Source of the DNA: Desulfocapsaceae bacterium
GTDB taxonomy: Bacteria; Desulfobacterota; Desulfobulbia; Desulfobulbales; Desulfocapsaceae
Reading direction: 5' to 3'
Length of the DNA: 64,000 bases
Assembly (NCBI GenBank): GCA_050291935.1
Contig: JBNKKR010000004.1
Location: forward strand, 3,206-67,205
Below, in pieces: positions 37,451 to 62,980 of this stretch (position 1 is its first letter; each line of letters begins with the position of its first letter). The notes under the pieces are model-generated. The model did no database searches. It was not told the origin of the DNA and was given only the letters and a program-made list of their open reading frames with translations. Both the position numbers and the translations under genes were made by a program.

Positions 37451-37454
37451 TTTG

Positions 37455-37640: not shown

Positions 37641-37642
37641 AA

Positions 37643-39846: not shown

Positions 39847-39882
39847 AACGTTTTTGCTCGTTTTTTTTGTATTTTTGTAGTG

Positions 39883-41504: not shown

Positions 41505-41552
41505 TTACTCTTTGAAGACCAATGAAGGAGCAGAGCTTTTATCGCGCGTGCG

Positions 41553-42158: not shown

Positions 42159-42159
42159 G

Positions 42160-43026: not shown

Positions 43027-43247
43027 GGGAACTCTTTGGTTGATGAATCACGTTTTGAAGACGTTTCAGGTTGTTTCAAAAAGCATTACAGCTCCATGAT
43101 AGTGAAAATTGGATAAACAATCCACCATAAAATATTTTGAATGCTAAAGGGAGCGATCAAAAAAATACCTTGCACCTTTTTGGCAACTTACGGTTTAATT
43201 ACGTGAGACCGTATACTCTTTTTCTCCTTTTTTCAGGAAAGCAAACT

Positions 43248-43922: not shown

Positions 43923-43999
43923 TATGTTTGGTGGTTGTGGCCGTGGAGTGAAAGTGTAATACGGTAAAGAGGAATCAGTAGAGGACGGGAAAAAGAGAA

Positions 44000-44605: not shown

Positions 44606-45137
44606 ATATTTGTTGACAGTGTTCTTCTTGTTGCTCTCATGCGTTTTGTTCGGCGTTACGGAAACTGCCCAGGCACAGGAGCAAAAGAGCAAATATGTAA
44701 CGCTGTGGTATTCAAATAGGGAGGTGTTACAGGAGTTTAATGATAATTTGCAACTTAATCGAAAGCTACATTATGCCATGCGTAAAAATGTGGTTACGGT
44801 GGCAGATGAGGTGTTGGCAAAACTTGATATTATCGTAGAAAAAGTCCAAATTGTCCTTGATATGTTTCCTGAATATTATCATGTTCGGGTGGCAGTTCTA
44901 CCAGATAACGACGATGTGGCACGAATCTATAAAAAGCGATATGGAAAACGGGTAAATCATATCGCCTACTATTCCCTTTCTGAAAAAACCATTTATATTT
45001 CAGCAGATGATACAAGACTTCGGGTTGTGGCCCATGAAGTTGGGCACTCCGTGGTCGATCACTATTTTAAAGTGCGTCCGCCTTATAACATTCACGAGTT
45101 GATGGCCCAGTTCGCCGAAAAGCATGTAACGGATTAG
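44598..45137 (+). CDS. secreted small protein with an HExxH zinc-metallopeptidase motif (function unknown)
   Basis: Signal peptide MIKYLLTVFFLLLSCVLFGVTETAQA. VAHEVGHSVVDHYFKVRPPYNIHELMAQFAE gives HExxH plus a downstream Glu (gluzincin-like arrangement). Confidence 0.5.
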   Translation: MIKYLLTVFFLLLSCVLFGVTETAQAQEQKSKYVTLWYSNREVLQEFNDNLQLNRKLHYAMRKNVVTVADEVLAKLDIIVEKVQIVLDMFPEYYHVRVAVLPDNDDVARIYKKRYGKRVNHIAYYSLSEKTIYISADDTRLRVVAHEVGHSVVDHYFKVRPPYNIHELMAQFAEKHVTD

Positions 45138-45161: not shown

Positions 45162-47504
45162 TTATATGGGGTTCTGTTTTTCTATCTTATTGATCCGTTG
45201 CTGTATCCTTATGTTTCTGGGGTCCAGGAAAAGTGCCTGCTTATACTCTTCCAATGCGCGATAATTGATTCCTTGTTTGCGGTAGTAGTCCCCCAAAGAG
45301 ATATGAAAGGAAGGATAGTCGGGTGATGCTTCTATTCCGCGTCTAAGAATCTCAATGGCTTCCTCTTCTTTTTTGTGTCTTTTATAGAATGAATAGATTT
45401 GATTAAAAAAATGTGGTTTGACAGTTTCTTCCTGATCCAAAAAGTCCAAGGCGTGGAGTCTGAAAAATTCTGCATCTTCAAGTTTTCCCATTTTCTCCAA
45501 AAAATGACCGGTTTGAATCCAGGGTGAGGCTTTACGTGGGAGTAATGAAGCTATTGATTCTTTCGTATAATCGCTACTTAAAAGAAAAAGAGGAAGGGCC
45601 TTCGCCAGGTTAGGATAAAGTTTTATCCCTTGTTGCAGCGCCTTTGCGGCCTGTTTTGGTTTACGCTGTTGGAGAAGCCATTCGATCCAGGAGAAAATGA
45701 GCTCTTCTTTGTTTTGGCTACGAAGATATCCCTCTTCCATAAGAGTATTTGCAAGACGAATCTTTTGTGGCGGAAGTGAAAGGGCAAGCCGTTGTAAGTA
45801 TGCACCTTCGTTAGGGTTTTTCATTGATGCTTTACTGTATGCTCTTAGTGCATCATCACCTTGTTTCCTCGCTGAAAAAAGGCCTCCTTTATAGAAATAA
45901 TAGTAACCTTCCAAAGGATCATATTCTATTGCCTGGTCAATGGTTTTATGGAGCCTGGTAAACAGCGCAGTGGAAAGTTTAGGGGAAACATAGACTTGTT
46001 CTGCCTGGTGTTGTAGCTTTTTGGCCTTAATAACGCCGTTTTGAACAAAAAAAGTGAGAAAAAAGAGTGGGAGAGTGAGAAAACAGATAGTGCGTAGTGT
46101 TGCTGAACCTGTTCGTAACAGTGTTGGGCGTGATCTGAAATGAAGGCGGGTATTGCCTGCGGAAACAAGCAGACCGCAGAGGAAGAAAAAATAGAGGCCA
46201 TTGGCGCCATTATGCATATTAAAGTCGGTAATACTGTGCAAAAGTATCGAGAAGAGGGCTGTTATCCCGGCGATTGAGAGTAAAATCGAATAGGTGTCTC
46301 GCCTCTTTTGCAACATATTGATACCGTTTCGGAAAATTGCTAATACAAACCATGCTGCAAGACTAAAACCAATTAACCCACCGTCGGTGAGTAGTTCTAT
46401 ATAATCGTTGTGGGCATGATCAAACAGTGCACTTGAGGGAATAGTTGAGTAGCGGGGAAATGCATGGGTGAAGGTTGCAAAACCGGATCCGGTAAAGAAA
46501 TAATCATGGATCATGGGTGCACAATCCTGCCAAATAAAAAGTCTTCCATTTTGAATTTCGCCTGTTGCAGAGACCACACTATTAAAGCGGCTTAAAATGG
46601 GGTCCCATCCCATCCATCCTACAGCTAAAAAAACAATGGCCATGGCCAGGAAGAAAACACCTCCTTTGGATTTGCTGCTTTTTTGTCTCAGCAGCAGAAA
46701 AAAGAGGAGTAAACCAAGGTTGATGGCGATGGTACCACCGCGAGAGAGGGTGACAAATACGGAACAAAGAATAAGGATTGCACCAAAGCCAAGTAAAAAA
46801 TAAAAATTAGACCCTGAGGTTGACAAAAAAGCGGCCATGCGTGCACGAAAGGCAAGTTTTTTGTCAACTTTGGGTCGATGGTAAAAAAAGAGGGCAAGTA
46901 CCAGCGGAAAGACAAGTTCCATAAAACCGGCATAATGGTTTCGATAGACCCACGGCCCGCCAGGGCTTGCATCTTGGGGAGCAGGTCTTAGCCAGTAGAT
47001 GATAGTATCGGAAGTAAATTTTTGCAAAATTGCCAAAAAGGCGATACCAATAGCCAGATACACAACAACATGCACTGTTTTGAGAAGTCTGTCCTTTTTG
47101 CTCAACAGTTGGACGGTAAGGATATAGAAACTTGTGTAACAGCTAATACGAATAAACTCAAGGAGTGTTGCTTTCTGGTTTACAGTGAGAGGGATCCAGC
47201 TCTTTGTTTCTTGAAGATCAAGAATAGGGGCGTACGTCTTATATATCTGTGGGGCTATAAAATTAACAAAATTTGCAGGAAGAGGGATAAGCTGCAGGAA
47301 AATAAAACAAACGAGTAAGAGAAGGGGGACTATACCAGGAGTTGCGAAGAACGCACCTGAACGCTTTTTAGGGAAGACCAAGAAAAATAAACTGCTGAAA
47401 ACAAGTAGCTCAACAATCGCAATTGACCACGTTTCCACACTGCCAAATGCCAAAGGAGCAAAAATCAGGCAAATTACAAAGAGTGGAAAAGAAAGTTTTC
47501 GCAT
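45162..47504 (-). CDS. O-antigen ligase/polymerase family (Wzy_C) membrane protein fused to a C-terminal TPR domain
   Basis: 780 aa and multi-TM, with HAHNDYIELLTDGGLIGF (Wzy_C motif). The last ~280 aa are soluble TPR-like repeats (...ALRAYSKASMKNPNEGAY..., ...ALEEYKQALFLDPRN...). Confidence 0.75.
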   Translation of the reverse strand: MRKLSFPLFVICLIFAPLAFGSVETWSIAIVELLVFSSLFFLVFPKKRSGAFFATPGIVPLLLLVCFIFLQLIPLPANFVNFIAPQIYKTYAPILDLQETKSWIPLTVNQKATLLEFIRISCYTSFYILTVQLLSKKDRLLKTVHVVVYLAIGIAFLAILQKFTSDTIIYWLRPAPQDASPGGPWVYRNHYAGFMELVFPLVLALFFYHRPKVDKKLAFRARMAAFLSTSGSNFYFLLGFGAILILCSVFVTLSRGGTIAINLGLLLFFLLLRQKSSKSKGGVFFLAMAIVFLAVGWMGWDPILSRFNSVVSATGEIQNGRLFIWQDCAPMIHDYFFTGSGFATFTHAFPRYSTIPSSALFDHAHNDYIELLTDGGLIGFSLAAWFVLAIFRNGINMLQKRRDTYSILLSIAGITALFSILLHSITDFNMHNGANGLYFFFLCGLLVSAGNTRLHFRSRPTLLRTGSATLRTICFLTLPLFFLTFFVQNGVIKAKKLQHQAEQVYVSPKLSTALFTRLHKTIDQAIEYDPLEGYYYFYKGGLFSARKQGDDALRAYSKASMKNPNEGAYLQRLALSLPPQKIRLANTLMEEGYLRSQNKEELIFSWIEWLLQQRKPKQAAKALQQGIKLYPNLAKALPLFLLSSDYTKESIASLLPRKASPWIQTGHFLEKMGKLEDAEFFRLHALDFLDQEETVKPHFFNQIYSFYKRHKKEEEAIEILRRGIEASPDYPSFHISLGDYYRKQGINYRALEEYKQALFLDPRNIRIQQRINKIEKQNPI

Positions 47505-47509
47505 AAAGT

Positions 47510-49762
47510 CTATTTGTCTTTGTAAGTATCTATGTCAATTTCATCTTTTTGATAATAATCGTAATAGCCATAGTAGCCTGAAGTTGCTCTACCTTGTTGC
47601 TTAATACCATTAACCACAACACCAAGAATGTTTGCGTGAATTTCACGAAATTTTCTTAGTCCGGAATCTATGGACTCGTAAGTCGTGAAACCACTACGAA
47701 CGACAAGGAGGGTTCCGTCTACTAATTTGCTAAGTGTAAGACTATCTGTTACTCGCTGCACAGGTGGAGAGTCAAGGAGCACATAGTCAAAACGTTTTGC
47801 CATCTCATTGACAAGGGTTTTCATCCTTTCAGAGTTGAGTAGTTCCGCAGGGTTAGGAGGAATGGTGCCCGCAGTAATAAGATAGACTCCATTTTCTTTT
47901 ATCGTTTTGACAAGTTCTTTCGTCCTGCCCCCGGTGAGATAGTTGCTCAAACCGCTGGTATTAGGAATAGCTGCAACACGATGCATACGTGGGCGCCGCA
48001 TATCACAACCGATAATCAGTACCTTTTTTCCATTTTGCGCTAGAATATGAGCAAGATTGCTGGTTGTTGTTGTCTTGCCCTCTTTAGGTGAAAGGCTGGT
48101 TATCAAAAGTGTGCGTGGTGGATTATCTGGAGTGGAGAGTAAAAGTCCGGATTGGATTAGACGATAACTTTCCGCCATGGGTGAGAGTAAGTTAGCTGGA
48201 AGCCAAGTGTCAAGATGTTCACCTTCTTGTCCTTTAAATTCACCGACAGATCCAAGTACAGTAAGCCCAAATTTTTGTTCAAGTTCTTTGCCATCTTTGA
48301 CGCTGTTATCAAGATATTCAATAAAAAAAGCGAGTCCAATACCTCCAAAGAGCCCTAAAATAAGCCCAAGCAATAGATTACGTTTTTTCTGTGGTTTTGA
48401 AGGAGCGCCTGGTAAAGAAGCCTTCTTTACTACCCAGATATTTATATCATGGGATTGTTCTGTGACAGAGGCCTTTTTTATGCTTGCAGAAAGTGCATCG
48501 TAGAGGACACGAGAAGTATCGACCTCTCTTTTCATTATCGAGTATTGAGTGAAACGTTCATTCACATTCAGCATTTCTTTTTTGGTTTTTGCAAGAAGCT
48601 GAGTGAGGTTTTGTTCCTTTGATTTGGTGAGTTCGTATGAGTTGCGAGTGGCTTCAATAATTCTGTTTACTTCGAATTTTTTTTCCTTTAAGAGTAAAGC
48701 GCGCTCAGCCTTGGCATTGATCATCACAGGGTGTTTGGGCCCATATTTTTTCGAGAGATCCTTTATTTTTTGTTCAACCTGATAGAGTTTTTCCCGGAGT
48801 CCTTGCAAGACCTTATTGTCTGCAAAAAGGGGAATCATTTCAACATTATCGTAATTTTCACCCAGTCTTTTTATCTGTGTGTATAGTGCTTCGTAATCCT
48901 TGAGTTCGGTTTGGGCTCTGGAGAGTTGGGAGCTGAATTCTGCAAGTTGTTGCGGATAAATGGCCAGTTTATTTTCAACCGTTACCAGGTCATTTTCACG
49001 AACATATTTTTGTAGCGCAATTTCAGATCCTTCCAGTTTCTTTCGTTCTTCATTTGCTTTTGCCGTCATCCATTGGAGGGAATAGTTACTGTTAGAGAGC
49101 TTGATTTCTAAAATTTCATCTATATAGGCCTGGACGATGGCATTGGCAATAAGTTTTGCCATGGCTGGATTTTTGTTACTGTAAGCGATATGGACCGTCT
49201 TGGTATTAGCCACAGGTTTTATGGTGAGTGCGCCCTTAATCTTATTGGCTATGATATCCGCATCTGATAGTGGCTCTGCTGCTGTACTTAATAGGTCTTC
49301 AGTATCAGAAATGTTATTTGTTCCACTATTGTTATCAGAATTAATTAAGCCTGCAAAAAAGTCTTTTATGGACCCTCGAAGACCGGTGAAAAATGTGAAA
49401 AGCCCATCTTTTTTTTCTGCAAAAAAATAACGTCTATATTTGGTATCAAGGTCTAAGGCTTTAACCACATTGTGTGCAACATTTGCAGAACGGATAAGTT
49501 CAAATTGAGTGGTGAGAAAATCTGGATCCCATCTGTAATACGAGCGCCCATCAATCCCTCCAGATTCATTTCGCTCTATCAAGACTTGTGATGAAGCGGT
49601 GTAATACGGTGTTGCGGTGTAGGTTGCTATCAGAACGGTAAAAAAGGTTATGGCGAGAAAGGTGAAAACGGTGGTTTTTCGTTTAACAATGACCTGCCAA
49701 TAATCACGGAGGTGAATTTCTTCCTCCTGTAGGTCGTGTGCATATAAATCGTTACGTGTCAT
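47510..49762 (-). CDS. polysaccharide co-polymerase (Wzz/GumC) fused to a BY-kinase tyrosine autokinase
   Basis: Wzz N-domain, coiled-coil region, second TM, Walker A SPKEGKTTTTSNLA, Walker B VLLDSPP and a Tyr-rich tail SGYYGYYDYYQKD. The ATG at 49762 (MTRNDLY), 1 nt after the upstream stop, is preferred over the tracked 49786. Confidence 0.85.
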   Translation of the reverse strand: MTRNDLYAHDLQEEEIHLRDYWQVIVKRKTTVFTFLAITFFTVLIATYTATPYYTASSQVLIERNESGGIDGRSYYRWDPDFLTTQFELIRSANVAHNVVKALDLDTKYRRYFFAEKKDGLFTFFTGLRGSIKDFFAGLINSDNNSGTNNISDTEDLLSTAAEPLSDADIIANKIKGALTIKPVANTKTVHIAYSNKNPAMAKLIANAIVQAYIDEILEIKLSNSNYSLQWMTAKANEERKKLEGSEIALQKYVRENDLVTVENKLAIYPQQLAEFSSQLSRAQTELKDYEALYTQIKRLGENYDNVEMIPLFADNKVLQGLREKLYQVEQKIKDLSKKYGPKHPVMINAKAERALLLKEKKFEVNRIIEATRNSYELTKSKEQNLTQLLAKTKKEMLNVNERFTQYSIMKREVDTSRVLYDALSASIKKASVTEQSHDINIWVVKKASLPGAPSKPQKKRNLLLGLILGLFGGIGLAFFIEYLDNSVKDGKELEQKFGLTVLGSVGEFKGQEGEHLDTWLPANLLSPMAESYRLIQSGLLLSTPDNPPRTLLITSLSPKEGKTTTTSNLAHILAQNGKKVLIIGCDMRRPRMHRVAAIPNTSGLSNYLTGGRTKELVKTIKENGVYLITAGTIPPNPAELLNSERMKTLVNEMAKRFDYVLLDSPPVQRVTDSLTLSKLVDGTLLVVRSGFTTYESIDSGLRKFREIHANILGVVVNGIKQQGRATSGYYGYYDYYQKDEIDIDTYKDK

Positions 49763-49763
49763 A

Positions 49764-50564
49764 TTAGAAAAAGCTCTCAGGAACAACTATAATATCATTG
49801 GCCTGTAATGGTGTATGTAGATCAACATCTTTGTAAATAGTTTTTTCCCCATCGACCAATCGTACAATACGGACGCCGGATTTCGAAGCCTTTCCCGTAA
49901 AGCCTCCTGAACGTGCTATAAGTTTTAATACAGTGCTCTCCTTATCGCAGGAATATGCATCAGGGTTTTTTACCTCGCCGGTAACATAGCACATGCCACC
50001 TTTAGCTATATAAATGGTGTCGCCATCATTAATAAGTACATTGTGACTAAGATCTCCACCTTCAACCAAGGATTTAATATCTACTACTATAACTTCCTGC
50101 TTTTTCCCTTTTGCACGTTTAATGGTTGCAACATCGCCTGCTGCTTCCTTTAAGCCGCCTGCACTTGAGATTGCCTCAAGAAATGTGGTTGATCCTCTAA
50201 TTTCCACAATGCCAGGTCTATAGACTTGGCCAAGAATTACCGCTTTTTTACTGCGATAATCTTCTATAAAAATATTGACTTGGGGGTTGACAAGGTATCC
50301 ATCGGCTAAAAGTCTGGTCAGTTTTTCCGTTACTTCTGATACTTTAAGACCTGTTACTTCAACCTGGCCAATAAGAGGCATAACGATGGTTCCACCGTCG
50401 GTCACCCGGACAGTTGTTTGTAAATCCGGATTGTCGTACACATCAATTTTTAAAACGTCACCAGTGCCAACATAATATTCATCGCTATGACAAACGAAGG
50501 GCAAGAAGAGAAAAGAAAAAAAGAGAGCAACAAACAAGGAATGTGAAAAACGTACAGCAGACAT
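49764..50564 (-). CDS. polysaccharide export protein (Wza-like; Poly_export plus SLBB)
   Basis: Signal peptide. YYVGTGDVLKIDVYDNPDL (Poly_export motif) and SLBB-like repeats. Confidence 0.85.
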   Translation of the reverse strand: MSAVRFSHSLFVALFFSFLFLPFVCHSDEYYVGTGDVLKIDVYDNPDLQTTVRVTDGGTIVMPLIGQVEVTGLKVSEVTEKLTRLLADGYLVNPQVNIFIEDYRSKKAVILGQVYRPGIVEIRGSTTFLEAISSAGGLKEAAGDVATIKRAKGKKQEVIVVDIKSLVEGGDLSHNVLINDGDTIYIAKGGMCYVTGEVKNPDAYSCDKESTVLKLIARSGGFTGKASKSGVRIVRLVDGEKTIYKDVDLHTPLQANDIIVVPESFF

Positions 50565-52122: not shown

Positions 52123-52197
52123 AAGCTTATGGGATGGTAGAATGAAACAACGAAACTAACCGTGTACTGTGGCCACAGTACACGGTCAGGGAAAATT

Positions 52198-52632
52198 TTA
52201 ATTAAAGGTTGATGGGCTGGCAGTCCTTACGTTCGTGGCAGGAGCTGGAATCCCAGCAAACCTTACTCCTTGTGCTACTGGAGTATATGCCTGGGAATCA
52301 GCAACTGCATCCCCACATTCTGCAACACTTTTATCAAATGCTGCCAACAAAATTAATTCCGATATTCCAGCCTGATCCGCCGCTACCTTAATATCATCAC
52401 CGGCCGCACCTGCACAATACAACGCCTTTAAAACATTCTGCGGGTTAAGACCTTCTATCTCAATGGCTCTGTTGACAATGTCCGTTGGGGTCTTCCCAAT
52501 CTCAAGTGCTTTGTCAACGGCGACCTCTATACCTTGGTTCTCAAGATTTACATCAAAATCTTCAATCCAATCAGCATAAGCGGTAGACACTAGCAACAAG
52601 CTGGAACATATGAGTATAATTAGTCGTTTCAT
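52198..52632 (-). CDS. secreted hypothetical protein
   Basis: 144 aa. Signal peptide MKRLIILICSSLLLVSTAYA. I recognised no family. Confidence 0.5.
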   Translation of the reverse strand: MKRLIILICSSLLLVSTAYADWIEDFDVNLENQGIEVAVDKALEIGKTPTDIVNRAIEIEGLNPQNVLKALYCAGAAGDDIKVAADQAGISELILLAAFDKSVAECGDAVADSQAYTPVAQGVRFAGIPAPATNVRTASPSTFN

Positions 52633-52870: not shown

Positions 52871-54322
52871 TTAGTCTGTGAAAGAATTTAATAAATTTTT
52901 GATATAGTTTTTTTGTTGTTCGTTTTCAAAAATAAATTTATAGCCGTGAATTTTTTTTCCATCGGATTCTGAAATCCACATGTGTTCTGCAGAAAATATT
53001 TCCTCTGGTGAGATAGTGTTAGCAACGTTAGTCTCATTTATAGAAAAAGTTATTTTTGATCCAAGGGCTGTTATCTCAGGGATTTTAGCCATAAAGCCTT
53101 CACAGGATAAATTTAGTATTGTCCCTGCAAACAGTTGGGCATTGTTCTCGTCATGCCCTTGGATAGGAATTGTAACACTATTTCTCGGTAGTTTGCGAAA
53201 TAGTCTGATCCAGTCAAGAAGGTTGAATACCATTTGCAGAATGTTGACTGGTAATTTGCAACTACTGCGTTTACGTTTAAAACGCAAGGAACAGCGTATA
53301 TAGAGAGGAATATAGAATGAGAGCGTAAAATAGCCTAAAAAGTATATAACGAATATTAAAAACAATAGCCAACCAGTAAGGTGATAGATTGGCTCAAGCA
53401 AACTTAGCATTCCAAGAAATGTACTCAATACAATAATCGATTTTGTGGTAGTTTTAGTTCCAAAGCCAAAACGTAAAAAAATATGGTGCAGGTGGTGTTT
53501 GTCTGCAGTAAAAGGACTGCCACCGTGAAGTACCCTTTTCCCCATAATTGTTAATGTGTCGACGATGGGAACTGCAAGTATTAATAGTGGGGTAATGGGG
53601 CGGATTAGTGGGCTTTCTCCCTGGCTCATAGCGATGGACATAAACGCAAGGGTAAATCCGAGGCAAAGGCTTCCTGCATCTCCCATAAAAAGGCGTGCTG
53701 GATGCCAGTTAAATCGTAAAAAACCCAGGACAGCACCAGCAAAGGAGAGGTTTAAAAGCATAAAGGTTTCATTTCCTGCAAGGTATGCATGTGTTGCAAA
53801 AAGCATAAAGGCTATAAAGGAAATGCCACCTGCAAGTCCATCAATGCCATCTATTAAATTGATTGCATTAATCACTCCGCAGACACAAAAGACAGTAGTA
53901 ATCCATGAGAGCCAGACCCAGGGAACCACAATATTTCCTAACCCCAGCAAATTGCCAAAAGAGCTCAAAGTTACCTTGCTGAAATAAATGAGCAAAATAC
54001 AGGCAGCAAATTGGGCAAGAAATTTTTGGCGATGACCCATTTCTTTAAAGTCATCAAGAAATCCTATAAGCAGCAATAATGATAAACCAGAAAAAAAACC
54101 TCTTAACCCACTAAGAGGAACAAAGAGTAGGGAGGCAAAAGTTGCTGCAATCATCATCCCGATTCCACCAACTAAAGGTTTGGGGACGGTATGTACCTTG
54201 CGCTGGTTGGGTTGGTCTAGTAAGCCAATATTTTTGGCTATAATAGCAAGTTTTGGGAGAACGAAAAGTGCTCCAAAAAGTGCAATTAAAAATACTAGTA
54301 TGGTTTTCAAATTGGTATGCAT
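52871..54322 (-). CDS. WecA/MraY-family (GT4) polyprenyl-phosphate HexNAc-1-phosphate transferase with a C-terminal PilZ domain
   Basis: The N-terminal ~330 aa are multi-TM with IGFLDDF, NAINLIDGIDGLAGG and MGDAGSLCLGF motifs. The last 111 aa (52874..53206) carry RLFRKLPR (RxxxR) and, 24 residues later, NLSCEG (NxSxxG), with a beta-rich tail. These are the PilZ c-di-GMP-binding signatures. Confidence 0.8.
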   Translation of the reverse strand: MHTNLKTILVFLIALFGALFVLPKLAIIAKNIGLLDQPNQRKVHTVPKPLVGGIGMMIAATFASLLFVPLSGLRGFFSGLSLLLLIGFLDDFKEMGHRQKFLAQFAACILLIYFSKVTLSSFGNLLGLGNIVVPWVWLSWITTVFCVCGVINAINLIDGIDGLAGGISFIAFMLFATHAYLAGNETFMLLNLSFAGAVLGFLRFNWHPARLFMGDAGSLCLGFTLAFMSIAMSQGESPLIRPITPLLILAVPIVDTLTIMGKRVLHGGSPFTADKHHLHHIFLRFGFGTKTTTKSIIVLSTFLGMLSLLEPIYHLTGWLLFLIFVIYFLGYFTLSFYIPLYIRCSLRFKRKRSSCKLPVNILQMVFNLLDWIRLFRKLPRNSVTIPIQGHDENNAQLFAGTILNLSCEGFMAKIPEITALGSKITFSINETNVANTISPEEIFSAEHMWISESDGKKIHGYKFIFENEQQKNYIKNLLNSFTD

Positions 54323-54568: not shown

Positions 54569-55693
54569 TTACGAAATATCAGAAGAGAATTGATTTTCCT
54601 TGAGAAGCCAGCGCACAATTCGTTTTGCACTTTTCCCATCCCATTTTTCCGGGATTTGATTGTTTTTCTGGTTATTTTTCAACGCTTTTTTTGAAGCTTC
54701 AAGGATTTTTTCTCCACTGTTTCCAACAATAGTATTTGTTCCAATTGTACACGTAATAGGTCTTTCCGTATTATGCCGCATGGTTATACAAGGGATACCT
54801 AAGACAGTAGACTCTTCTTGCAGCCCGCCGCTGTCTGTAAGGATTAGGCTTGCATGCATATTCAAATTAAGAAATTCAAGGTAGCTCATGGGCTCTGTTA
54901 CCCAAATTCCCGTAACCTCAGATCCTTCATTAAGGTAACGAGATAGGTTATATTTAGCGATCATTTTTCTGGTTCTGGGATGGATGGGGAAAATGATTGG
55001 TATGATTTGGCTGATTTCTGCTAAAGTCTGTAAAATTTCTTCTAAAACTGATTTACTATCAACATTTGAAGGGCGATGCATGGTAAGTGTTGCATATCCA
55101 TTTTTTTCAACTCCTAATTTGTTGAAAACATCAAGTTTTAAAGCCAAATTCTTGTGTTTCAGTAATGTATCAATCATCACATTTCCCACAAAGAAAATCT
55201 TATCCTCCGATATTCCTTCATTTCGGAGATTTTCATTTGCAAAATGGTCAGTGGTGAACAGGTAGTCGCACAGTGCATCGGTACACAATCGGTTGATCTC
55301 TTCGGGCATTTCCATATCCCTTGAGCGCAGTCCAGCTTCAACATGAGCAACTTTAATCCCAAGTTTTTTGGCGGTAATGGTGCAAGCCATGGTTGAATTG
55401 ACGTCACCAACAACAATAACCAGATCAGGCTTTTCTGTAAGACACACTTTCTCAAATAATACCATAATTTTTGCAGTTTGTTCAGCATGGCTCCCTGAAC
55501 CCACCCCAAGATCAATATCAGGTTTTGGCATTCCAAGATCATCAAAGAAAGCTTTTGACATTTTCGTGTCATAATGTTGACCAGTATGGACTAAAAGGTG
55601 TTCAATCTGATCAGGGTACTGATTCATTGCATCGATTATTGGGGCCATTTTCATAAAGTTTGGTCGTGCACCGACCACATTGATCACTTTCAC
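54569..55693 (-). CDS. wecB: UDP-N-acetylglucosamine 2-epimerase (non-hydrolysing)
   Basis: MKVINVVGARPNFMKMAPI..., VHTGQHYD, LILTDSGGLQEE motifs. Confidence 0.95.
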   Translation of the reverse strand: MKVINVVGARPNFMKMAPIIDAMNQYPDQIEHLLVHTGQHYDTKMSKAFFDDLGMPKPDIDLGVGSGSHAEQTAKIMVLFEKVCLTEKPDLVIVVGDVNSTMACTITAKKLGIKVAHVEAGLRSRDMEMPEEINRLCTDALCDYLFTTDHFANENLRNEGISEDKIFFVGNVMIDTLLKHKNLALKLDVFNKLGVEKNGYATLTMHRPSNVDSKSVLEEILQTLAEISQIIPIIFPIHPRTRKMIAKYNLSRYLNEGSEVTGIWVTEPMSYLEFLNLNMHASLILTDSGGLQEESTVLGIPCITMRHNTERPITCTIGTNTIVGNSGEKILEASKKALKNNQKNNQIPEKWDGKSAKRIVRWLLKENQFSSDIS

Positions 55694-55727: not shown

Positions 55728-56909
55728 TTATCGTTTCTTCGCAAAGGCTACAAAGAGTTGCGAGCATATTCGAAGTGGCCTTAGGAAATAATAGAGCCAA
55801 GTCAGTCTATTTGGTAGTTGTAGTATTTGCCAGTCTGCTTTGGTGGGTAAAACAAAAAGACGAATCAGATGTCTTGCTTGGTCGAAAATGTTGTCACGAA
55901 TATACAAATGGTTATGGGTAAAACGAGCCTGTTTTCGACTGTTACGATTGTTACCAAAAAGACGGCTTAGCAACTCTTCGCCAGTCTGTTTCACTCGAAC
56001 GTTGGCGCTGGCTTTATTCTGTAAATTCTGGGGCAGTGTAATATCAAATAGTTGATGAGCGAGTAACAGGCCAAGAAGAACAATGTTTTTGCAATGTAGC
56101 TTTTCGGCAAGTTGCCAGGCTTGTTTCCAGTTTATATCTTTACGGGTATTGACTAATTCGGCCAAACAACAAATCCATTCAAGTGTTTCCCAGTTGTGTT
56201 TTTCGCCGTGGATACAGAGGTATACAAGTAGGGCGGTTGGGCCTATGGTGCAAACTTTTTTTCCGCAGAATTCAACGAACTCGATATGGTCTTTAATTAT
56301 ATCCAAGGTAAAGGCTTGTGGCAATGATCTGCCGGATAGTTCCCAGTGAAGCTCCAGAAACATATTGTGAGATTCGTTTTTGAAGTTGAGATTATCTTCC
56401 ACTTTTATGTATTGGGAGAGTTGAGAGCTTGACAGGCGCAGCTCGGGCAAGTACCCATATTGTTGTAACAAGTCATTTGATTGTTTGACATGACGTGTAT
56501 GGATTAGCACATCAAGATCGCCAAATGGTCTAAAACCGAGGTTTCCATATACTGAGACCGCAAGTACTGGACCTTTAAAAGGTACTATCGGAATATGATG
56601 TTTTTGAAAGAGGTCCAGGATTGTAAATAGCTGCGCGCTGAACTGAAGATTTCGCTGGGTAATATGTAATGTAAACCCGGTAAGTTGCTTGGCGATAGTA
56701 CTTGGAATTAATTCTGGGCAGCTTTGTTTTAGGTTGTGGTGGAGTAATGTTAACACTCTGTGTTTCTTTGCCGCCTGGATGAGGTAATCCCAGTCAGGAT
56801 TTTTGGATACAAGTCTGCAAATCTGTTGTTGTAGGTTTGCATTCAATTTTGTTCGTGAACAACATAGTAGTAGTTCGTGCTCTGGTCTATGAATATGTTG
56901 AGCTTTCAT
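55728..56909 (-). CDS. uncharacterised nucleotidyltransferase family protein (NTP_transf_5/PF14907-like)
   Basis: 393 aa. N-terminal ELLLCCSRTKLNANLQQQICRLV...DWDYLIQAAKKHRVLTLLHHNL and a central GDLDVLI motif resemble this family. The start codon abuts the stop of the upstream TagA-like gene with zero gap. Confidence 0.6.
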   Translation of the reverse strand: MKAQHIHRPEHELLLCCSRTKLNANLQQQICRLVSKNPDWDYLIQAAKKHRVLTLLHHNLKQSCPELIPSTIAKQLTGFTLHITQRNLQFSAQLFTILDLFQKHHIPIVPFKGPVLAVSVYGNLGFRPFGDLDVLIHTRHVKQSNDLLQQYGYLPELRLSSSQLSQYIKVEDNLNFKNESHNMFLELHWELSGRSLPQAFTLDIIKDHIEFVEFCGKKVCTIGPTALLVYLCIHGEKHNWETLEWICCLAELVNTRKDINWKQAWQLAEKLHCKNIVLLGLLLAHQLFDITLPQNLQNKASANVRVKQTGEELLSRLFGNNRNSRKQARFTHNHLYIRDNIFDQARHLIRLFVLPTKADWQILQLPNRLTWLYYFLRPLRICSQLFVAFAKKR

Positions 56910-57656
56910 TCAGATTGAATGCGATTTTGTAAAGTATTTTTCAATGAATACCTGAAACGCAAATAGTGGAAGTACCCGCTGACGTTTTATCCGATTTGGT
57001 TCTGCAAGTAGACGGTAAAACCATTCAAGTCCAAAACGACAGAAAAGATCTGGTGCACGTTTTACATTTCCGGTGATTACATCAAGCGTACCGCCTATTC
57101 CCTGGCATACACGTATGTTTTTGAGATCCTGGTGGTATGTAGAAAACCATTTTTCCTGTTTGGGTGATCCAAGGGCAAGAAATAATATCTGGGCTCCGGA
57201 ATTGTTTATCTGTTCCACAAGCTCGTTCATTTTTTCTTCAGGTAGATAGCCGTTACAGCGTCCAACAATTTGTAAATCTGGAAGGCGCTTTTGAAGTGTT
57301 TTTGTAGCTTTGAGATTTACTTCTTCTTTTGCACCGTAGATAAATATTTTATAACCTTGTTTTGCAGACAAGGCACAAATGTCCTGCATGAATTCACATC
57401 CTGGAACTCTTGAGAGTTTTGCTCCATGTAAAAGCCTTGCTGCCAGCACCATGCCAATGCCGTCTGGTAAAAGTAGGTCGGCGTTTTTAAAACTATCATA
57501 AAGAAGAGGATCTTGAGGAACGGAATAATTTTTTTCGGGATTGGTGGCAAAAACTGTATGGGGTCGGTTACCAGTTTCGATAAAATTTGCGACCTGTTGT
57601 AATGCACCCTCCTTGGTGATGGCGTCTGTCCAAATATTTAAAATAGGATACCTCAT
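56910..57656 (-). CDS. WecB/TagA/CpsF family glycosyltransferase (ManNAc/ManNAcA transferase type)
   Basis: 248 aa. ...LLLPDGIGMVLAARLL..., IFIYGAKEEV, ILFLALGSPKQEKW, and QGIGGTLDVITGNVKRAP motifs. Confidence 0.85.
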   Translation of the reverse strand: MRYPILNIWTDAITKEGALQQVANFIETGNRPHTVFATNPEKNYSVPQDPLLYDSFKNADLLLPDGIGMVLAARLLHGAKLSRVPGCEFMQDICALSAKQGYKIFIYGAKEEVNLKATKTLQKRLPDLQIVGRCNGYLPEEKMNELVEQINNSGAQILFLALGSPKQEKWFSTYHQDLKNIRVCQGIGGTLDVITGNVKRAPDLFCRFGLEWFYRLLAEPNRIKRQRVLPLFAFQVFIEKYFTKSHSI

Positions 57657-57674: not shown

Positions 57675-59462
57675 CTACAGCATTACAATGCTAGTCTTAA
57701 AAAAAGTGTTTTCTGGAGTGCCATGTTTTACCGCCTGAATAGTTGTCGTAGGTTCAATCGATCCGTAAGAACGAGAATACCAACCTGCCAATGGCTCATT
57801 TTTGCCATGCAAAAGATTGATGGTTTCAGCGTTTATTGTCAGTGACATGGTTATATTTTCTCGCTGCAAAAGAATGGTTTTGTTTTTCCTACTCACTGTT
57901 ACCGCCGGATGGAGATGAAAGTGTAGCGTATATTCATGCTTACCACTACCTGAAAATGTATCTTCGATGGTAAGCGTCCCTGTTGGGTTAAAAGTTAGGG
58001 TGCGACAGTGGCTCACGGCAATATCTTGTAAGGTAAAGCCGTTGTGTTTCCCGGAAGCGATGATATTATTTTTGTTGACGATTTTTGCTTCCCAAGAGAC
58101 CTCAAAAGAGCGATCCCACATGAAACTGCTAAGGTGTTTAGCCTGGCTGAACCCATCGACAGAAACCGTGTTGTGTGCTTTAGTGCTTTTGAAATAGCGC
58201 CGTAATTGTTGATTTCCATTATATTGAAATGTTCCAGGATCTATGAGGAAATCAATATGTTGAAATGAGATTAGGATTGAGAGACAATCGGCGTGACCAT
58301 GGTTGTATAAGGGGGCCATACCAAGACTGCCGTGATCAAAAAGAATACGCAGCCCATTCTCGCCACGAAACAGAGAGTAACCACTATTTGGAAAGTTTTT
58401 GTAGGGTAATGGTTGATTGGTAGCATTCAGTACTTCTCGGACAGGTGAGAGTCCTGGAGCAACAGCAAAACCATCATCACTATCTCCAATCATCGGTAGA
58501 GATTCGTCTTTATACTGAATTGTTTGTAAAAATGTTTCGCCAACAAGAACTCGTTTTCGCATGGAAGAACAATCATGGAGATTATTGTCGGTAAGGAAAT
58601 GAATTGCCAGCCAATACAGATCAAGTACAAAACGATGATAGGAGAAGGATTGTTCTGCCGGTCCACCATCATCGAGAATTTGATGGTTACACTCTTGTTC
58701 TAGCAGTCGAATGCCGGTTTGTAGCCATTCTGTTCCTTGATCAGTTTTTTTAAACAGTGCTCCGGCAATGATTAAACCAACACACTCACTTATGGTGTGA
58801 TTGCCTAATGATGAGTATAGTGAAAGACGTTTGCGAATTAACCAGCTATGCTGGAAAATTGTTAACAGCAGTGTGTGTTGCTGATTACTGCTTAACTGTT
58901 TTAGGTTTAGATAAGCAGCAAAAAAAACAGGGATGCGCAGAGCACATTCCATAACAGAGGTATAATGGGGACCATGCAGAAAAGGGTTGTGAATAATCCA
59001 CCAAAATAGCCTTGCTTGGATAAGTTCTTCAATGGAGTTCTTTTGTTCTTGATTTCTATTTGTTGATAGGTGATGAAGTAAAATCATCAGGTGCTGCAGT
59101 CTGGCCGGTTCCCAAACAGCACGAATATCCGGATCTGTATTTTTTTGCTTTATTTCCGAGAAGGGGATTTCTCGCCAGGTGTCTTCAAAAGTAGATAAAA
59201 CCGAGCGCTTTTCCCCTAGGGTGAATTCTTTCCCATTCTCGAGTTGGGTGTGTAGTACACTCTTTACAGAGCATGAAAGTTTCGGGAATTTAAGGGTGTG
59301 ATTCGCTGCCTTTTGTAGGTCACGCACCAAGTCTTTTTTATAACTGTTTGGGTTTGCTTTTAATTTTTGTATAAGTAAAGAATCAGATATTCTATGGAGG
59401 ATTTCAGCCATTGAAGAACGACGTAGTCTAAGGAAGTAGAAATGAAGTCGTTCAATATTCAT
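57675..59462 (-). CDS. heparinase II/III-like (alginate-lyase superfamily) protein
   Basis: About 595 aa with an N-terminal alpha/alpha toroid-like region and a C-terminal Hepar_II_III-like beta region (NHGHADCLSILISF). The start is uncertain: ATG 59462 or the tracked TTG 59534. Confidence 0.7.
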   Translation of the reverse strand: MNIERLHFYFLRLRRSSMAEILHRISDSLLIQKLKANPNSYKKDLVRDLQKAANHTLKFPKLSCSVKSVLHTQLENGKEFTLGEKRSVLSTFEDTWREIPFSEIKQKNTDPDIRAVWEPARLQHLMILLHHLSTNRNQEQKNSIEELIQARLFWWIIHNPFLHGPHYTSVMECALRIPVFFAAYLNLKQLSSNQQHTLLLTIFQHSWLIRKRLSLYSSLGNHTISECVGLIIAGALFKKTDQGTEWLQTGIRLLEQECNHQILDDGGPAEQSFSYHRFVLDLYWLAIHFLTDNNLHDCSSMRKRVLVGETFLQTIQYKDESLPMIGDSDDGFAVAPGLSPVREVLNATNQPLPYKNFPNSGYSLFRGENGLRILFDHGSLGMAPLYNHGHADCLSILISFQHIDFLIDPGTFQYNGNQQLRRYFKSTKAHNTVSVDGFSQAKHLSSFMWDRSFEVSWEAKIVNKNNIIASGKHNGFTLQDIAVSHCRTLTFNPTGTLTIEDTFSGSGKHEYTLHFHLHPAVTVSRKNKTILLQRENITMSLTINAETINLLHGKNEPLAGWYSRSYGSIEPTTTIQAVKHGTPENTFFKTSIVML

Positions 59463-59554
59463 GGAGGCTTTTATTAATGTGGTCAGAATGAGTCTACATG
59501 GATAAGCGTACCGGAAACGAATGTTTTTTTGCAACTTACAGGTGGTAAACTGAC

Positions 59555-61720
59555 TTAACTTTGTGGCTCACCAATAAAAATAGTGCGGCGGTGCTGTAAG
59601 GATTCCAAAACTGCGAAAGTCGCATGGCTAACTGTGAAAATTTCATCTTTTGCTATGGGAGGGACCCCTCCATCCTGAATCGCCCCTAAAAACGCAGCAA
59701 GCATTTTCTTTTGCCCTTTATCCTGAGATAGCATTTTTTTGCGGAATGGTTTGCCCGCGCTGAAAATCTCCAATTCTTTATAATCTCTAATAATACCTGT
59801 TGATCCACTGGAGTATATTTCGAGGTACTCTTTGGTTAGTGATTTGGCTCCATTGGCAAAATATGATATGGAGCCGATGGATCCATTCTCGAATTCCAGG
59901 TTTATTGAAACAGTATCATTGGTGTTGTGAGGACTAGGAAGGGCAGATGCAGAAACGGTTTTTGGAAGCGATTCACACATGAATGACATGAAATCAATAA
60001 AGTGGCATACCTCACCAAGAATTCTTCCCCCACCAATTGTCCTGTCCTGTATCCATGAATCTGCAGGGATATATCCAGCATTAATCCTGTAAATCATGGA
60101 CATGGGACCCGTTCCTAATTTGTCCTTCATAACTTGAACAAGGGGAGCAAAGCGCCGGTTAAAGCCTACCATCAGATGGGTTGTATCAGTAGCAGCGTTT
60201 TCAATAGCGTTTAACTCTTCAAGGGTTAAGCAGAGGGGTTTTTCAACAAATACATGTTTGTTGTTTTGCAGTGCTTCCAGTATATATTCGGCGTGACTAT
60301 TATGGCGGGTGGAAATGAAAACTGTATTAATATCTTTGTTGTCGAATATGTCTGCCTTTTCAGATGTGCAGAACTCAAAACCAAATTTTTCTGCCACTGT
60401 TTTTGACGTGGTTCCCGATGTTGTCATTACACCTTTGTTAACAATCTCAGGATCGTTTTTTGGTAAGTTAGGTAAAAGACTGCCTTGGGCATAGCTTCCA
60501 GCACCGATAAAAGCTAATCCTATTTTCCCGGTTGCTTGTATAGGAGCAACAGGGATTTTTTCTCTTTTAATTGGTTTTGTAACATCATATTTGATGAGGA
60601 TCCCAAGAAAGGGTTCATTTCGGTTAACCACCATATCATAAGCCCCAGGTGCATCCTCCAGCGAGAACTCATGGGTGGTTAGAAAGTTTAAATTGATCTT
60701 TTCTGTACGGATAAGCTCCTGAAAAGCTGCCATATTACGGTTCTCTGTCCAGCGAACGTAGGCAGGAGGATAATCAATTCCTTTGTCTTCATAGTTGATA
60801 TCGTATCGCCCTGGACCATAGGAACATGACATGCGAATATCCAATTCTTTACGGTAATAATAGGGATCTCGGTCAAATCCTGTAGGAACTGCACCAGAAA
60901 CGATGATTCTCCCTTTCTTTCTAGCAATCTCTCCGGCAAAGTTGATTGGTACTAAACTCTCTGTTGCAGCGGTAATAATAACTCCATCACAACCAAGGCC
61001 AATGGTAAATGCGAAAATGGAATCGGTAACACCTGCTTCTCCAAGAACAAAGGCAAAATCAGCACAATTTTCTTGGGCTCGTTTAACTGCTGATGGGTCA
61101 ATATCAAGTCCAATTACCCTTATTCCTGAAGCTTGCAATAATAAGCAAGAAAGCTGGCCAAGTAGGCCTAAACCTATAACCGCACATGTCTCCCCGAGCC
61201 TCAAGTCGGCTTGACGAACCCCCTGCATAGCAATGGCACCAAGGGTATTGTAGGCAGCCATCTTTAACTGTTTGCTAGATTCGATATCTGGGGTGCCTGT
61301 CACCTTGACGCATAAGTTTTTCGGTACCGATACTATCTCGGCATGGTTGGCAGTTAAACCCCCGCATGCGACGAAATCACCCTCTTGAAATTCTGTAACG
61401 TCAGGGGCAACATCAATTACTTCTCCAACACAGGAGTAACCTAGGGGGGAATAGGCATCAAGTTTTTTCATAACGGCCCGGTAGGTTTGCATTGGGCCTT
61501 GGGTTTTTAATATATCAAGAACTTGTTTTACCTGTTGGGGTCTTTCTTTAGCTTTGCCTACGAGTCCTTTTCTGGCAGTCGTAACGGTGTTGCCTTCAGT
61601 CCCTGCGCTGATGAGGGAATAATGGTTGCGGACCAGGATACAACCTGTAAAGAGTGACGGCCATGGTGCTTTGATAGTCTTCACGTTTCCGTTTTTTAAC
61701 TTTTGGGCTAACTGATACAT
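59555..61720 (-). CDS. bi-domain oxidoreductase (zinc-type alcohol dehydrogenase-like plus Gfo/Idh/MocA)
   Basis: 721 aa. An MDR/GroES-like N-half (VIGLGLLGQL Rossmann) is followed by a Gfo/Idh/MocA half (LAFIGAGSYAQ..., VFVEKPL). Confidence 0.8.
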   Translation of the reverse strand: MYQLAQKLKNGNVKTIKAPWPSLFTGCILVRNHYSLISAGTEGNTVTTARKGLVGKAKERPQQVKQVLDILKTQGPMQTYRAVMKKLDAYSPLGYSCVGEVIDVAPDVTEFQEGDFVACGGLTANHAEIVSVPKNLCVKVTGTPDIESSKQLKMAAYNTLGAIAMQGVRQADLRLGETCAVIGLGLLGQLSCLLLQASGIRVIGLDIDPSAVKRAQENCADFAFVLGEAGVTDSIFAFTIGLGCDGVIITAATESLVPINFAGEIARKKGRIIVSGAVPTGFDRDPYYYRKELDIRMSCSYGPGRYDINYEDKGIDYPPAYVRWTENRNMAAFQELIRTEKINLNFLTTHEFSLEDAPGAYDMVVNRNEPFLGILIKYDVTKPIKREKIPVAPIQATGKIGLAFIGAGSYAQGSLLPNLPKNDPEIVNKGVMTTSGTTSKTVAEKFGFEFCTSEKADIFDNKDINTVFISTRHNSHAEYILEALQNNKHVFVEKPLCLTLEELNAIENAATDTTHLMVGFNRRFAPLVQVMKDKLGTGPMSMIYRINAGYIPADSWIQDRTIGGGRILGEVCHFIDFMSFMCESLPKTVSASALPSPHNTNDTVSINLEFENGSIGSISYFANGAKSLTKEYLEIYSSGSTGIIRDYKELEIFSAGKPFRKKMLSQDKGQKKMLAAFLGAIQDGGVPPIAKDEIFTVSHATFAVLESLQHRRTIFIGEPQS

Positions 61721-62928
61721 TGATTGTAGTTGTTGTTTAGGATGGTTTCATATTTCTGAAATAATGTTGACTGGAAAAATAATTTTCTACATTTAGCAAC
61801 ATTATTAGATTTTTCATGTATAGAACTCGATGTTAACTCTTTTAGAATATTGATAACCTCACAGGAGTTAAAAGAAGCATACCAGCCTATATCGTATTTT
61901 TTTACAAAATCTGTACTGTCTCCTGACCCTAAAGAAATCATCGGAAGCCCCGCCGCTATACTATCAAATACTTTGTTTGGTAATGCTCCAGAAACCATTG
62001 GTATTATAGATACATGATGGTGTCGTAATTCTCCGACCAACTTTTCGGGGGACAGCAGCCCTACAACTTCAACTTGCTGAGATAAGTTATGTTTGTCGAT
62101 AAACTCAATTGTCTCGTTGTATCTCTCTCCAGAACCATTATCACCAATTATTGTAAAATAAAAATTTGAAGAACAACTGGATAAAGCTTGCAAAATAGGT
62201 TTTATGTTAAACTGATCCGTCAATGTTCCACAATATACAAGTTTTACGGTATCACCTGTGCCAATGCGAGAACTGTTAACGTTAACACATCTGCCTTCCC
62301 AACGATGTTCATCAAATCCAAGAGGAATAAATGTTGAAATTGCGTCTACAGAAAATCGACTCAACCAAGCTAAATATGACGGTGCTACATGGACATAATC
62401 ATCAAAATGACAAACGGAATTCTTTAGAAAAAGTGTACAATATTTGTCAAACAAGTATCGAGTTATCCCTGAAGTAGTGGTCAAAGCATCGGGCCATATA
62501 TCACGAATATCTAGAACTGTTTTACAGCCACATTCATGCTTTAAACGAGCTATCATCCAGATAAGTTCTGGTGGCCTTGAAGGAATGATTATCACATCTT
62601 TTTCATTTACAATTTGTTTTAGTTTTTTATAGCATTTGTAAGCAAATTTCTGGTGCCAGAAAACACGTTTGAAAGATAAATTCTTTTTATAGCTTCCAAC
62701 GTCAATTAGAGTGAGTTCATAAGGAACACGTTTTTGAACGTGTACATACTCTGATTCCGAAAAATTTCTTTTTTCTGCATGACTAAAGTTAGTACTTAAA
62801 TACTCTACATCCCAACCATGTTTTACGAGATATTCAGCGAGATTAGGGTGTCGTTTCCCTCTAATGGTCAGCGCTGATTCTGTTGGAGAAATAATAAAAA
62901 GTCTTTTTTTGTTGGAAGATGGGGCCAC
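61708..62928 (-). CDS. glycosyltransferase family 4 (GT-B, group 1)
   Basis: 406 aa. The C-terminal half shows a GT1-like pattern (...SIIPMVSGALPNKVFDSIAAGLPMI...). 13-nt overlap with the downstream oxidoreductase gene. Confidence 0.7.
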   Translation of the reverse strand: MAPSSNKKRLFIISPTESALTIRGKRHPNLAEYLVKHGWDVEYLSTNFSHAEKRNFSESEYVHVQKRVPYELTLIDVGSYKKNLSFKRVFWHQKFAYKCYKKLKQIVNEKDVIIIPSRPPELIWMIARLKHECGCKTVLDIRDIWPDALTTTSGITRYLFDKYCTLFLKNSVCHFDDYVHVAPSYLAWLSRFSVDAISTFIPLGFDEHRWEGRCVNVNSSRIGTGDTVKLVYCGTLTDQFNIKPILQALSSCSSNFYFTIIGDNGSGERYNETIEFIDKHNLSQQVEVVGLLSPEKLVGELRHHHVSIIPMVSGALPNKVFDSIAAGLPMISLGSGDSTDFVKKYDIGWYASFNSCEVINILKELTSSSIHEKSNNVAKCRKLFFQSTLFQKYETILNNNYNQCIS

Positions 62929-62980
62929 AGTTTTTTATATTCTTTTTTTGAATTTTAAGAACATCACAAAAACAATAGAA

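Follow-up and report, generated by a model that had tools for sequence, protein, structure and literature searches.

Can the first step of a lipid-linked polysaccharide pathway be placed under the direct control of a second messenger? This question is raised by a gene located within a 64,000-nucleotide stretch of DNA from a Desulfocapsaceae bacterium (GenBank assembly GCA_050291935.1, contig JBNKKR010000004.1), the whole of which is called here the window. An initial annotation had proposed that this gene, at positions 52871..54322 of the minus strand, encodes a priming glycosyl-phosphate transferase of the WecA/MraY family fused to a PilZ domain, a receptor of cyclic di-GMP (c-di-GMP). The list of open reading frames (ORFs) of the window gives it as one unbroken frame of 483 codons (stop codon at 52871..52873), and a Pfam scan of the 483-amino-acid (aa) protein returned two domains, Glycos_transf_4 (PF00953) and, at a borderline score in this full-length scan, PilZ (PF07238). 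Hidden Markov model profiles, motif conservation, the predicted fold and its structure search, and the topology all confirmed the fusion of a WecA-like transferase to PilZ, and it is almost certain that an intact priming enzyme is covalently joined here to an intact canonical PilZ domain. We propose that c-di-GMP, bound by this domain, would gate the formation of undecaprenyl-pyrophosphate-N-acetylglucosamine (Und-PP-GlcNAc), an activation model to which we attach a probability of about 0.6. Positions are those of the window, and the features of the gene and of its polysaccharide locus lie on the minus strand unless otherwise indicated.

A gene of this kind could be an artefact in which two adjoining genes were merged by a sequencing or assembly error. 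A search of a protein collection, however, retrieved more than 100 homologous clusters of equal length (49-69% identity) with the same architecture, most of which carry a precomputed PF07238+PF00953 annotation, and the same continuous gene is present in the finished genomes of Desulfocapsa sulfexigens (CP003985.1) and Desulfosediminicola flagellatus (CP050698.1). An unbroken architecture in so many independent protein clusters leaves a vanishingly small probability for such an error, which was ruled out by the independent assemblies. The GT4-PilZ fusion is a real and conserved architecture, uncharacterised so far.

The transferase body (residues 1-336; 53315..54322) was recognised by Pfam, TIGR02380, Foldseek and the predicted structure as a protein of 11 transmembrane helices with the MraY/WecA fold. 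PF00953 matched residues 75-232 with an E-value of 3.4e-43 (147.9 bits versus a cutoff of 27). The nearest curated model, TIGR02380 (ECA_wecA), aligned with residues 7-337 over 332 of its 346 profile positions, with a score of 220.7 bits that falls short of the ECA_wecA equivalog cutoff of 326.05. Compared with the PDB, the family profile matched MraY (4j72, E 3.7e-25) and also human DPAGT1. The full-length AlphaFold model, which contains the 11 helices (predicted local distance difference test, pLDDT, 79.5; predicted template modelling score, pTM, 0.73), was aligned by Foldseek with MraY structures at TMt 0.75-0.80 and an E-value of about 1e-9. The body is a member of the polytopic phosphoglycosyl transferase (PGT) superfamily, together with MraY, WecA and DPAGT1. 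No GT2 domain was detected in the 483-aa protein by Pfam or Foldseek; the enzyme is of the GT4/MraY type only, so it is no synthase of the BcsA type.

The invariance of the catalytic residues was judged in an alignment of 32 homologous sequences. The pair D90-D91 (54050..54055), a Mg2+ motif of the DDxxD type at the cytoplasmic end of transmembrane helix (TM) 3, was invariant, as were N152, N155, D158, G159, D161, G162, L163, A164 and G165 within NAINLIDGIDGLAG (residues 152-165; 53828..53869), the NxxNxxDGxDGL catalytic motif that provides D158 and D161. The conserved cytoplasmic-loop motif FMGDAGS with D215 (residues 212-218; 53669..53689), which also served as the pattern for genome searches, was invariant from F212 to S218. 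Likewise invariant were R263 and, within HHLHH (residues 276-280; 53483..53497), an HIHH-like motif of the fifth cytoplasmic loop, H277, H279 and H280. D90/D91 and D158/D161 correspond to D90/D91 and D156/D159 of E. coli WecA, the first pair of which is required for activity, and the HIHH/His279 motif of bacterial WecA is implicated in recognising UDP-GlcNAc (PMC5222938). Because the invariant catalytic residues match WecA residues needed for activity, the enzyme half looks, as far as its sequence tells, catalytically competent and of the bacterial WecA type. With 11 helices and every catalytic motif intact, the earlier description of a complete multi-TM WecA-like transferase was borne out.

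The PilZ domain (residues 376-483; 52874..53197) was delineated by Pfam, Foldseek and the AlphaFold model as six β-strands followed by a C-terminal α-helix, the Pfam match covering residues 376-478 and profile positions 3-100 of 102. The two PilZ signatures that had been reported in the last 111 residues (52874..53206) were confirmed in their coordinates and in their spacing: RKLPR (residues 376-380; 53183..53197) is an RxxxR motif and NLSCEG (residues 404-409; 53096..53113), which starts 24 residues past the second Arg of RKLPR, a [D/N]hSxxG motif, both predicted to bind c-di-GMP. When scanned alone, the 111-residue tail passed the PilZ profile search with 25.6-25.9 bits, the latter value corresponding to an E-value of 1.3e-5, against a curated cutoff of 22.5, and all 32 tails of the family matched PilZ individually (best E-value 1.8e-15). 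R376, R380, S406 and G409 are invariant and make up four of the eight invariant columns of the tail alignment, in which residue 404 is always N or D and residue 405 hydrophobic. Both motifs, with an almost invariant spacing, are kept in 117 of the 118 full-length homologues while the tail averages 30% identity to the query, compared to 64% for the enzyme body. This conservation shows purifying selection on the motif residues, the pattern expected of selection for ligand binding.

The predicted fold agreed with the profiles. The tail profile matched the c-di-GMP-binding PilZ protein PP4397 in the PDB (2gjg and 3kyf, E 3e-4), and the AlphaFold model of the tail (pLDDT 84.3) shows, in tail numbering, strands at 16-26, 31-40, 44-48, 58-63, 77-88 and 91-99 and a helix at 103-117. 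Galperin and Chou (bioRxiv 10.1101/814665) define the canonical PilZ layout as a β-barrel of six strands to which a long α-helix is added at the C-terminus. Ranks 1 to 41 of the Foldseek search of the PDB with this model were occupied exclusively by PilZ-domain proteins, with the PilZ domain of BcsA on top, followed by YcgR, Alg44, VCA0042, PA0012, MotI, MrkH and MapZ. A chance match to the motifs was ruled out by the profile, the conservation and the fold.

For the PilZ domain to act on the transferase, the position of the tail relative to the membrane matters. With the N-terminus outside, the 11-helix model places all catalytic motifs on cytoplasmic loops. The C-terminus of MraY is periplasmic, and in WecA an eleventh helix brings the chain back to the cytoplasm. 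Since the alignment with MraY stops near residue ~310, after helix 10 and before TM11, and since the eleventh helix returns the chain, this extra helix places the tail in the cytoplasm. The linker (residues 337-375; 53198..53314) begins right after TM11 with the K/R-rich sequence RCSLRFKRKR, which agrees with the positive-inside rule in the loop charge analysis, and continues as a helix toward PilZ. Helices are modelled at residues 338-350 and 357-371, and the mean identity of the linker across the family is 33%. The low-pLDDT stretch at residues 370-377 holds the start of RxxxR, and its modelled flexibility would be as expected for a PilZ linker that wraps around c-di-GMP. The closest PilZ-less relatives, two Nitrospira proteins of about 350 aa (loci L020 and L022) whose body is 51% identical, end a few basic residues past helix 11; the tail is therefore an add-on to a complete WecA-like body.

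According to the mechanism that we propose, the transferase would move an N-acetylhexosamine (HexNAc)-1-phosphate, most probably GlcNAc-1-phosphate, from the UDP-sugar onto undecaprenyl phosphate (Und-P), and the resulting Und-PP-HexNAc would begin the repeat unit of a polysaccharide destined for export, with the downstream Wza, Wzc and Wzy_C proteins as its machinery. WecG/TagA-family enzymes act on Und-PP-GlcNAc, as in the WecA-WecG and TagO-TagA pairs, and the WecG/TagA-family gene of the locus points to GlcNAc-1-phosphate as the sugar transferred; the neighbouring WecB gene adds to this support from context. With the chain returned to the cytoplasm by TM11, PilZ would sit beside the cytoplasmic active site, and c-di-GMP, bound to the RxxxR linker and the [D/N]hSxxG strand, would act as an allosteric switch that turns the transferase on; in that case the cell would spend scarce Und-P on this polymer only at high c-di-GMP. 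In BcsA structures, the RxxxR linker makes an autoinhibitory contact that is relieved, and control of the fusion may be similar. Activation could follow from the relief of such a contact or from the ligand stabilising an active dimer, a route suggested for the EpsW-EpsZ pair of Myxococcus xanthus (PMC12802240). Activation is favoured because c-di-GMP generally stimulates polysaccharide synthesis in known systems (PMC12802240; PMC12220298) and because PilZ domains in fusion proteins are reported to keep c-di-GMP binding (bioRxiv 10.1101/814665). We would give even odds to the wider proposal that, in a Wzy-type pathway, c-di-GMP acts through the PilZ-PGT fusion to gate priming directly, as the committed step that consumes Und-P, and that this is the first second-messenger checkpoint at a PGT.

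Several points weigh against this activation model. For all members of the family, c-di-GMP binding and its effect on transferase activity are predictions; the contact between PilZ and the active site is putative, and the direction, activation rather than inhibition, is suggested by analogy. Pfam scans, extended to 40 further window ORFs, detected neither a gene for c-di-GMP turnover (GGDEF, EAL or HD-GYP) nor a Wzx flippase, and the window contained no diguanylate cyclase, phosphodiesterase or c-di-GMP riboswitch; an Rfam scan of the whole window and a permissive scan of positions 52000-55000 for riboswitches or leaders returned nothing meaningful. Neither the window ORFs scanned by Pfam nor the multi-TM ORFs of the flanks fetched around related loci included a Wzx flippase. 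In the full protein, the PilZ score is 21.6 bits, just under the curated cutoff, and even the 25.6-25.9 bits of the isolated tail are among the weakest of a family that reaches 57.7 bits. Two full-length members from Nitrospirota, L015 (2334..3770) and L018 (2285..3718), carry the degenerate motifs KRTKR (KxxxR) and NIGTCG (NIGxxG), which suggests that c-di-GMP binding was lost in this branch; because of these two, binding is, to judge from the motifs, not universal in the family.

The low PilZ score and the motif decay of L015 and L018 would also suit an explanation in which the PilZ-like tail of the window protein no longer binds c-di-GMP and persists in a structural or adaptor role, like the PilZ protein that gave the domain its name and the degenerate members. 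We regard this as very unlikely, since RKLPR and NLSCEG are both canonical with the hydrophobic h position kept, none of the 32 aligned homologues departs from the motif residues, and the fold is predicted to be a full PilZ barrel, terminal helix included. We predict with good confidence that the window copy binds c-di-GMP.

Binding could also occur without directly switching catalysis on. PilZ would then be a brake at high c-di-GMP, as in YcgR, or a docking or dimerisation module through which, once the ligand is bound, the transferase would be brought to Wzc, to the glycosyltransferases that act next or to a particular place in the cell. Many PilZ proteins work through protein-protein contacts, in which the C-terminal helix is known to serve as an interface (bioRxiv 10.1101/814665), MraY and DPAGT1 structures appear as dimers in the fold search, EpsW has been proposed to promote dimerisation of its PGT (PMC12802240), and a Wzc-type bacterial tyrosine kinase (BY-kinase) is always encoded in the same module. 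A covalent fusion by the active-site face favours instead an intramolecular effect, and in the known polysaccharide systems c-di-GMP stimulates rather than inhibits (PMC12802240; PMC12220298). Taken jointly, the brake and the docking module appear unlikely compared to direct activation of the transferase by c-di-GMP.

The activation model further supposes that the transferase feeds an export pathway, and the genes that surround it bear on this point. Downstream, the transferase gene is directly followed by a gene for a 144-aa protein with a signal peptide (52198..52632), which has no Pfam or NCBIfam match and follows the GT4-PilZ gene in nine related loci (39-71% identity). Next are an outer-membrane β-barrel protein (BBP2_2, PF10082; 50722..52122), weakly related to EpsL/PEP-CTERM-associated proteins (TIGR03014/TIGR03016), a Wza-type outer-membrane polysaccharide export protein with Poly_export and SLBB domains (49764..50564; TIGR03028 EpsE, 182.6 bits, below the cutoff of that model), a Wzc-type protein that joins a chain-length determinant to a tyrosine autokinase (Wzz, GNVR and P-loop; 47510..49786; TIGR01007, 162.9 bits, above the cutoff of 108) and a 780-aa membrane protein of the Wzy_C O-antigen ligase/polymerase family (45162..47504; PF04932, E 3.5e-25) with about 10 hydrophobic segments and a C-terminal TPR region. 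By tblastn, the order GT4-PilZ, 144-aa protein, BBP2, Wza, Wzc and Wzy_C/TPR was found in the window and in nine of the ten Desulfobulbales loci with enough flank, the full module being held by L003, L005, L007-L011, L014 and L026. The exception, L001 (Desulfocapsa sulfexigens), has the upstream sugar genes and lacks the export block at that site.

Upstream of the transferase gene lie, in turn, genes for a WecB-type UDP-GlcNAc 2-epimerase, directly adjacent (54569..55693; PF02350, E 7.6e-102), a protein of the uncharacterised nucleotidyltransferase family NTP_transf_5 (55728..56909; PF14907, E 8.9e-57) and a ManNAc(A) transferase of the WecG/TagA family (56910..57656; PF03808, E 5.9e-58; TIGR00696, 172.6 bits, above the cutoff of 69). 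The profile scan further identified a Heparinase II/III-like protein (57675..59534), a fused oxidoreductase (59555..61720) and two GT1 glycosyltransferases (61708..63889) that reach the edge of the window, and the operon runs on past base 64000. The upstream glycosyltransferases vary between genomes, as in serotype-variable regions, and in L009 and L011 these variable regions carry a separate Wzy_C protein of 415-429 aa, plausibly the repeat-unit polymerase.

These data qualify the assignment to a Wzx/Wzy-type pathway made in the initial annotation: its Wza, Wzc and Wzy_C-family proteins are present, and its Wzx flippase was found neither in the window nor in the fetched flanks. The missing Wzx gives room to another destination for the product, namely that the PilZ-controlled transferase feeds no Wzx/Wzy exopolysaccharide and that the Wzy_C/TPR protein attaches the Und-PP-linked glycan to lipids or to proteins such as PEP-CTERM proteins, or that a nearby ABC-2 transporter exports it. 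The Wzy_C family includes ligases and O-oligosaccharyltransferases, a weak match to TIGR03097 (O-glycosylation ligase, exosortase A system-associated) was obtained, and both a PEP-CTERM protein (35565..36365, plus strand) and an ABC-2 transporter pair (39883..41504) are encoded in the window. Against such a destination, Wza and a Wzc-type BY-kinase are hallmarks of Wzy-dependent export, the 415-429-aa Wzy_C proteins of L009 and L011 are typical of repeat-unit polymerases, and the locus extends past the window, so a Wzx gene may lie outside. We judge a product of this kind quite unlikely, and a Wzx/Wzy-type pathway likely.

Other features of the locus were recorded. A terminator-like hairpin with a 15-bp stem lies directly past the 144-aa gene (52156..52189, minus strand), and since it follows that gene directly, the GT4-PilZ and 144-aa genes could form a transcription unit apart from the export genes; overall, neither promoter nor terminator counts in the window exceeded those of shuffled sequence. 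NTP_transf_5 is a recurrent neighbour of the fusion across two phyla: besides the window, it is encoded upstream of the fusion gene in three Desulfobulbales genomes (L001, 6819..7991; L003, 6964..8028; L005, 8379..9506) and in one Thermodesulfovibrio (L019, 552..1673). Three successive genes of 261, 201 and 179 aa without a Pfam family, on the opposite strand of the window (43137..45137, plus strand), are kept beside the module in L001, L003, L005 and partly L011 (38-78% identity).

How does the fusion compare with known systems? BcsA, with its C-terminal PilZ, and Alg44, with its N-terminal PilZ, resemble it in combining a membrane enzyme of polysaccharide synthesis with a canonical PilZ domain, either by fusion or as a partner, with RxxxR in a flexible linker, [D/N]hSxxG on the barrel and, as the expected outcome, synthesis turned on with c-di-GMP. 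By contrast, BcsA and Alg8/Alg44 belong to the processive GT2 synthases, in which the chain is polymerised and translocated with no lipid-linked repeat unit involved, whereas the fusion is a PGT of the GT4/MraY fold that would perform a single priming transfer onto Und-P, the control being then one of substrate commitment and not of elongation. With E. coli WecA and Bacillus subtilis TagO, the fusion shares the end-to-end match to the WecA model, the 11 helices, the DD and NxxNxxDGxDGL motifs, an HLHH similar to HIHH and the proximity of WecB and WecG/TagA genes. These enzymes lack, however, the cytoplasmic extension of ~147 residues with PilZ, and their loci are those of enterobacterial common antigen, O-antigen or teichoic acid, unlike the Wza/Wzc export locus of the fusion.

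The initial annotation had seen in control at the priming step a different regulatory logic. No paper describing a PGT-PilZ fusion was retrieved by our literature searches, and neither a PilZ survey (bioRxiv 10.1101/814665) nor a 2025 effector review mentions one, in agreement with the earlier remark that no characterised example was known. It also agrees with a 2025 paper that describes the post-translational control of Wzx/Wzy pathways as little understood and that by c-di-GMP as established for synthase-dependent pathways (PMC12802240). The logic is nevertheless less unprecedented than had been implied. In Caulobacter crescentus, c-di-GMP activates the early holdfast glycosyltransferase HfsJ, thus acting post-translationally on an early lipid-linked polysaccharide step; HfsJ differs as a predicted glycolipid glycosyltransferase rather than a priming PGT, and the review attributes no PilZ to it (PMC9980756). 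In M. xanthus, a signal acts directly and post-translationally on EpsZ, the initiating PGT of a Wzx/Wzy pathway, through EpsW, a phosphorylated single-domain response regulator working in trans on a monotopic WbaP-type PGT (PMC12802240), whereas the fusion would be a second-messenger receptor in cis on a polytopic WecA-type PGT. The fusion belongs to the PilZ-controlled polysaccharide enzymes without founding a new category, and it is already partly visible in database annotations.

Through a PilZ domain acting on a priming enzyme, control by second messengers would reach into the other major class of polysaccharide pathways, at the point where the carrier lipid is committed. If so, sulfate reducers of the Desulfobulbales and some Nitrospirota could allocate a shared lipid carrier between envelope pathways. 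The fusion would give a direct one-protein handle on the post-translational control of lipid-carrier-dependent pathways, an acknowledged gap. As a compact single polypeptide, it would also suit biochemical and structural work on how allostery operates in MraY/WecA-type enzymes, themselves antibiotic targets.

The architecture survey that had been suggested earlier was carried out by scanning species-representative genomes with full-length alignment, a taxonomic survey that gives a lower bound. Among the matches listed, full-length fusions came from Desulfopila, Desulforhopalus, Desulfocapsaceae and Desulfobulbaceae and, at 43% identity, from Nitrospirota, a Thermodesulfovibrio among them. The architecture is shared by Desulfobulbales and some Nitrospirota, members of at least two phyla. 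The Thermodesulfovibrio protein (L019) has a strong PilZ match (57.7 bits, E 1.6e-15) and, as mentioned above, an NTP_transf_5 gene upstream; directly downstream of its GT4-PilZ gene, at 3778..4686, is a gene for an HDOD-domain protein (HD-related signalling). The neighbours of the degenerate L018 gene are housekeeping genes, with no export module. Hosts in culture are Desulfosediminicola flagellatus, whose protein WP_136805360.1 is named PilZ domain-containing protein, Desulfocastanea catecholica, with WP_459943679.1, and Desulfocapsa sulfexigens, with AGF78347.1; for this last gene, a second and shorter prediction goes under the name MraY family glycosyltransferase. In many members the PilZ domain is already flagged by database pipelines, and NCBI names some of them PilZ domain-containing protein. 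Family names are inconsistent, and the window copy lies just under the Pfam PilZ cutoff, so pipelines miss the fusion.

In a library of representatives at 50% identity, 22 of the best 150 matches align through the tail (12 full-length proteins and 10 fragments); the rest are WecA-like proteins of ~350 aa or proteins of ~550 aa with other C-terminal extensions. Many related GT4 transferases of ~540-570 aa (for instance P0150 and P0161, and those of L024, L025 and L027) carry a C-terminal extension of ~200 residues without a Pfam family, which in P0150 resembles additional transmembrane segments, and P0228 has a fused GT1 glycosyltransferase instead. In the 506-aa protein P0136, a close GT4 relative from this library, a C-terminal region with a weak and degenerate GGDEF match (22.7 bits versus a cutoff of 23.8) stands in place of PilZ; its GGDEF motif is replaced, and a clean RxxD I-site is lacking. 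The region may represent another kind of c-di-GMP-related module for this enzyme and hints that the GT4 subfamily may have acquired such modules more than once. P0140 (543 aa) is possibly a GT4 transferase fused to a C-terminal domain weakly similar to the 144-aa protein encoded next to the window transferase (BLASTP E-value 0.002, from one comparison), a hint that the two are functionally linked.

Two further gene groups were observed in the window. A cluster resembling lasso-peptide or 'HPr-rel-A' systems (36483..43026, minus strand) adjoins the polysaccharide locus, with the PEP-CTERM gene beside it; it encodes an HPr-kinase-like protein, an Asn-synthase-like protein (614 bits with the NCBIfam lasso-peptide cyclase model, cutoff 525), the ABC-2 transporter pair, an APS kinase and a nucleotidyl transferase. 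The same set is present in D. sulfexigens together with Transglut_core3 and PqqD genes. Finally, three paralogous genes for AAA_14 + DUF4143 ATPases are clustered at 30383..34863, between glnA and the PEP-CTERM gene.

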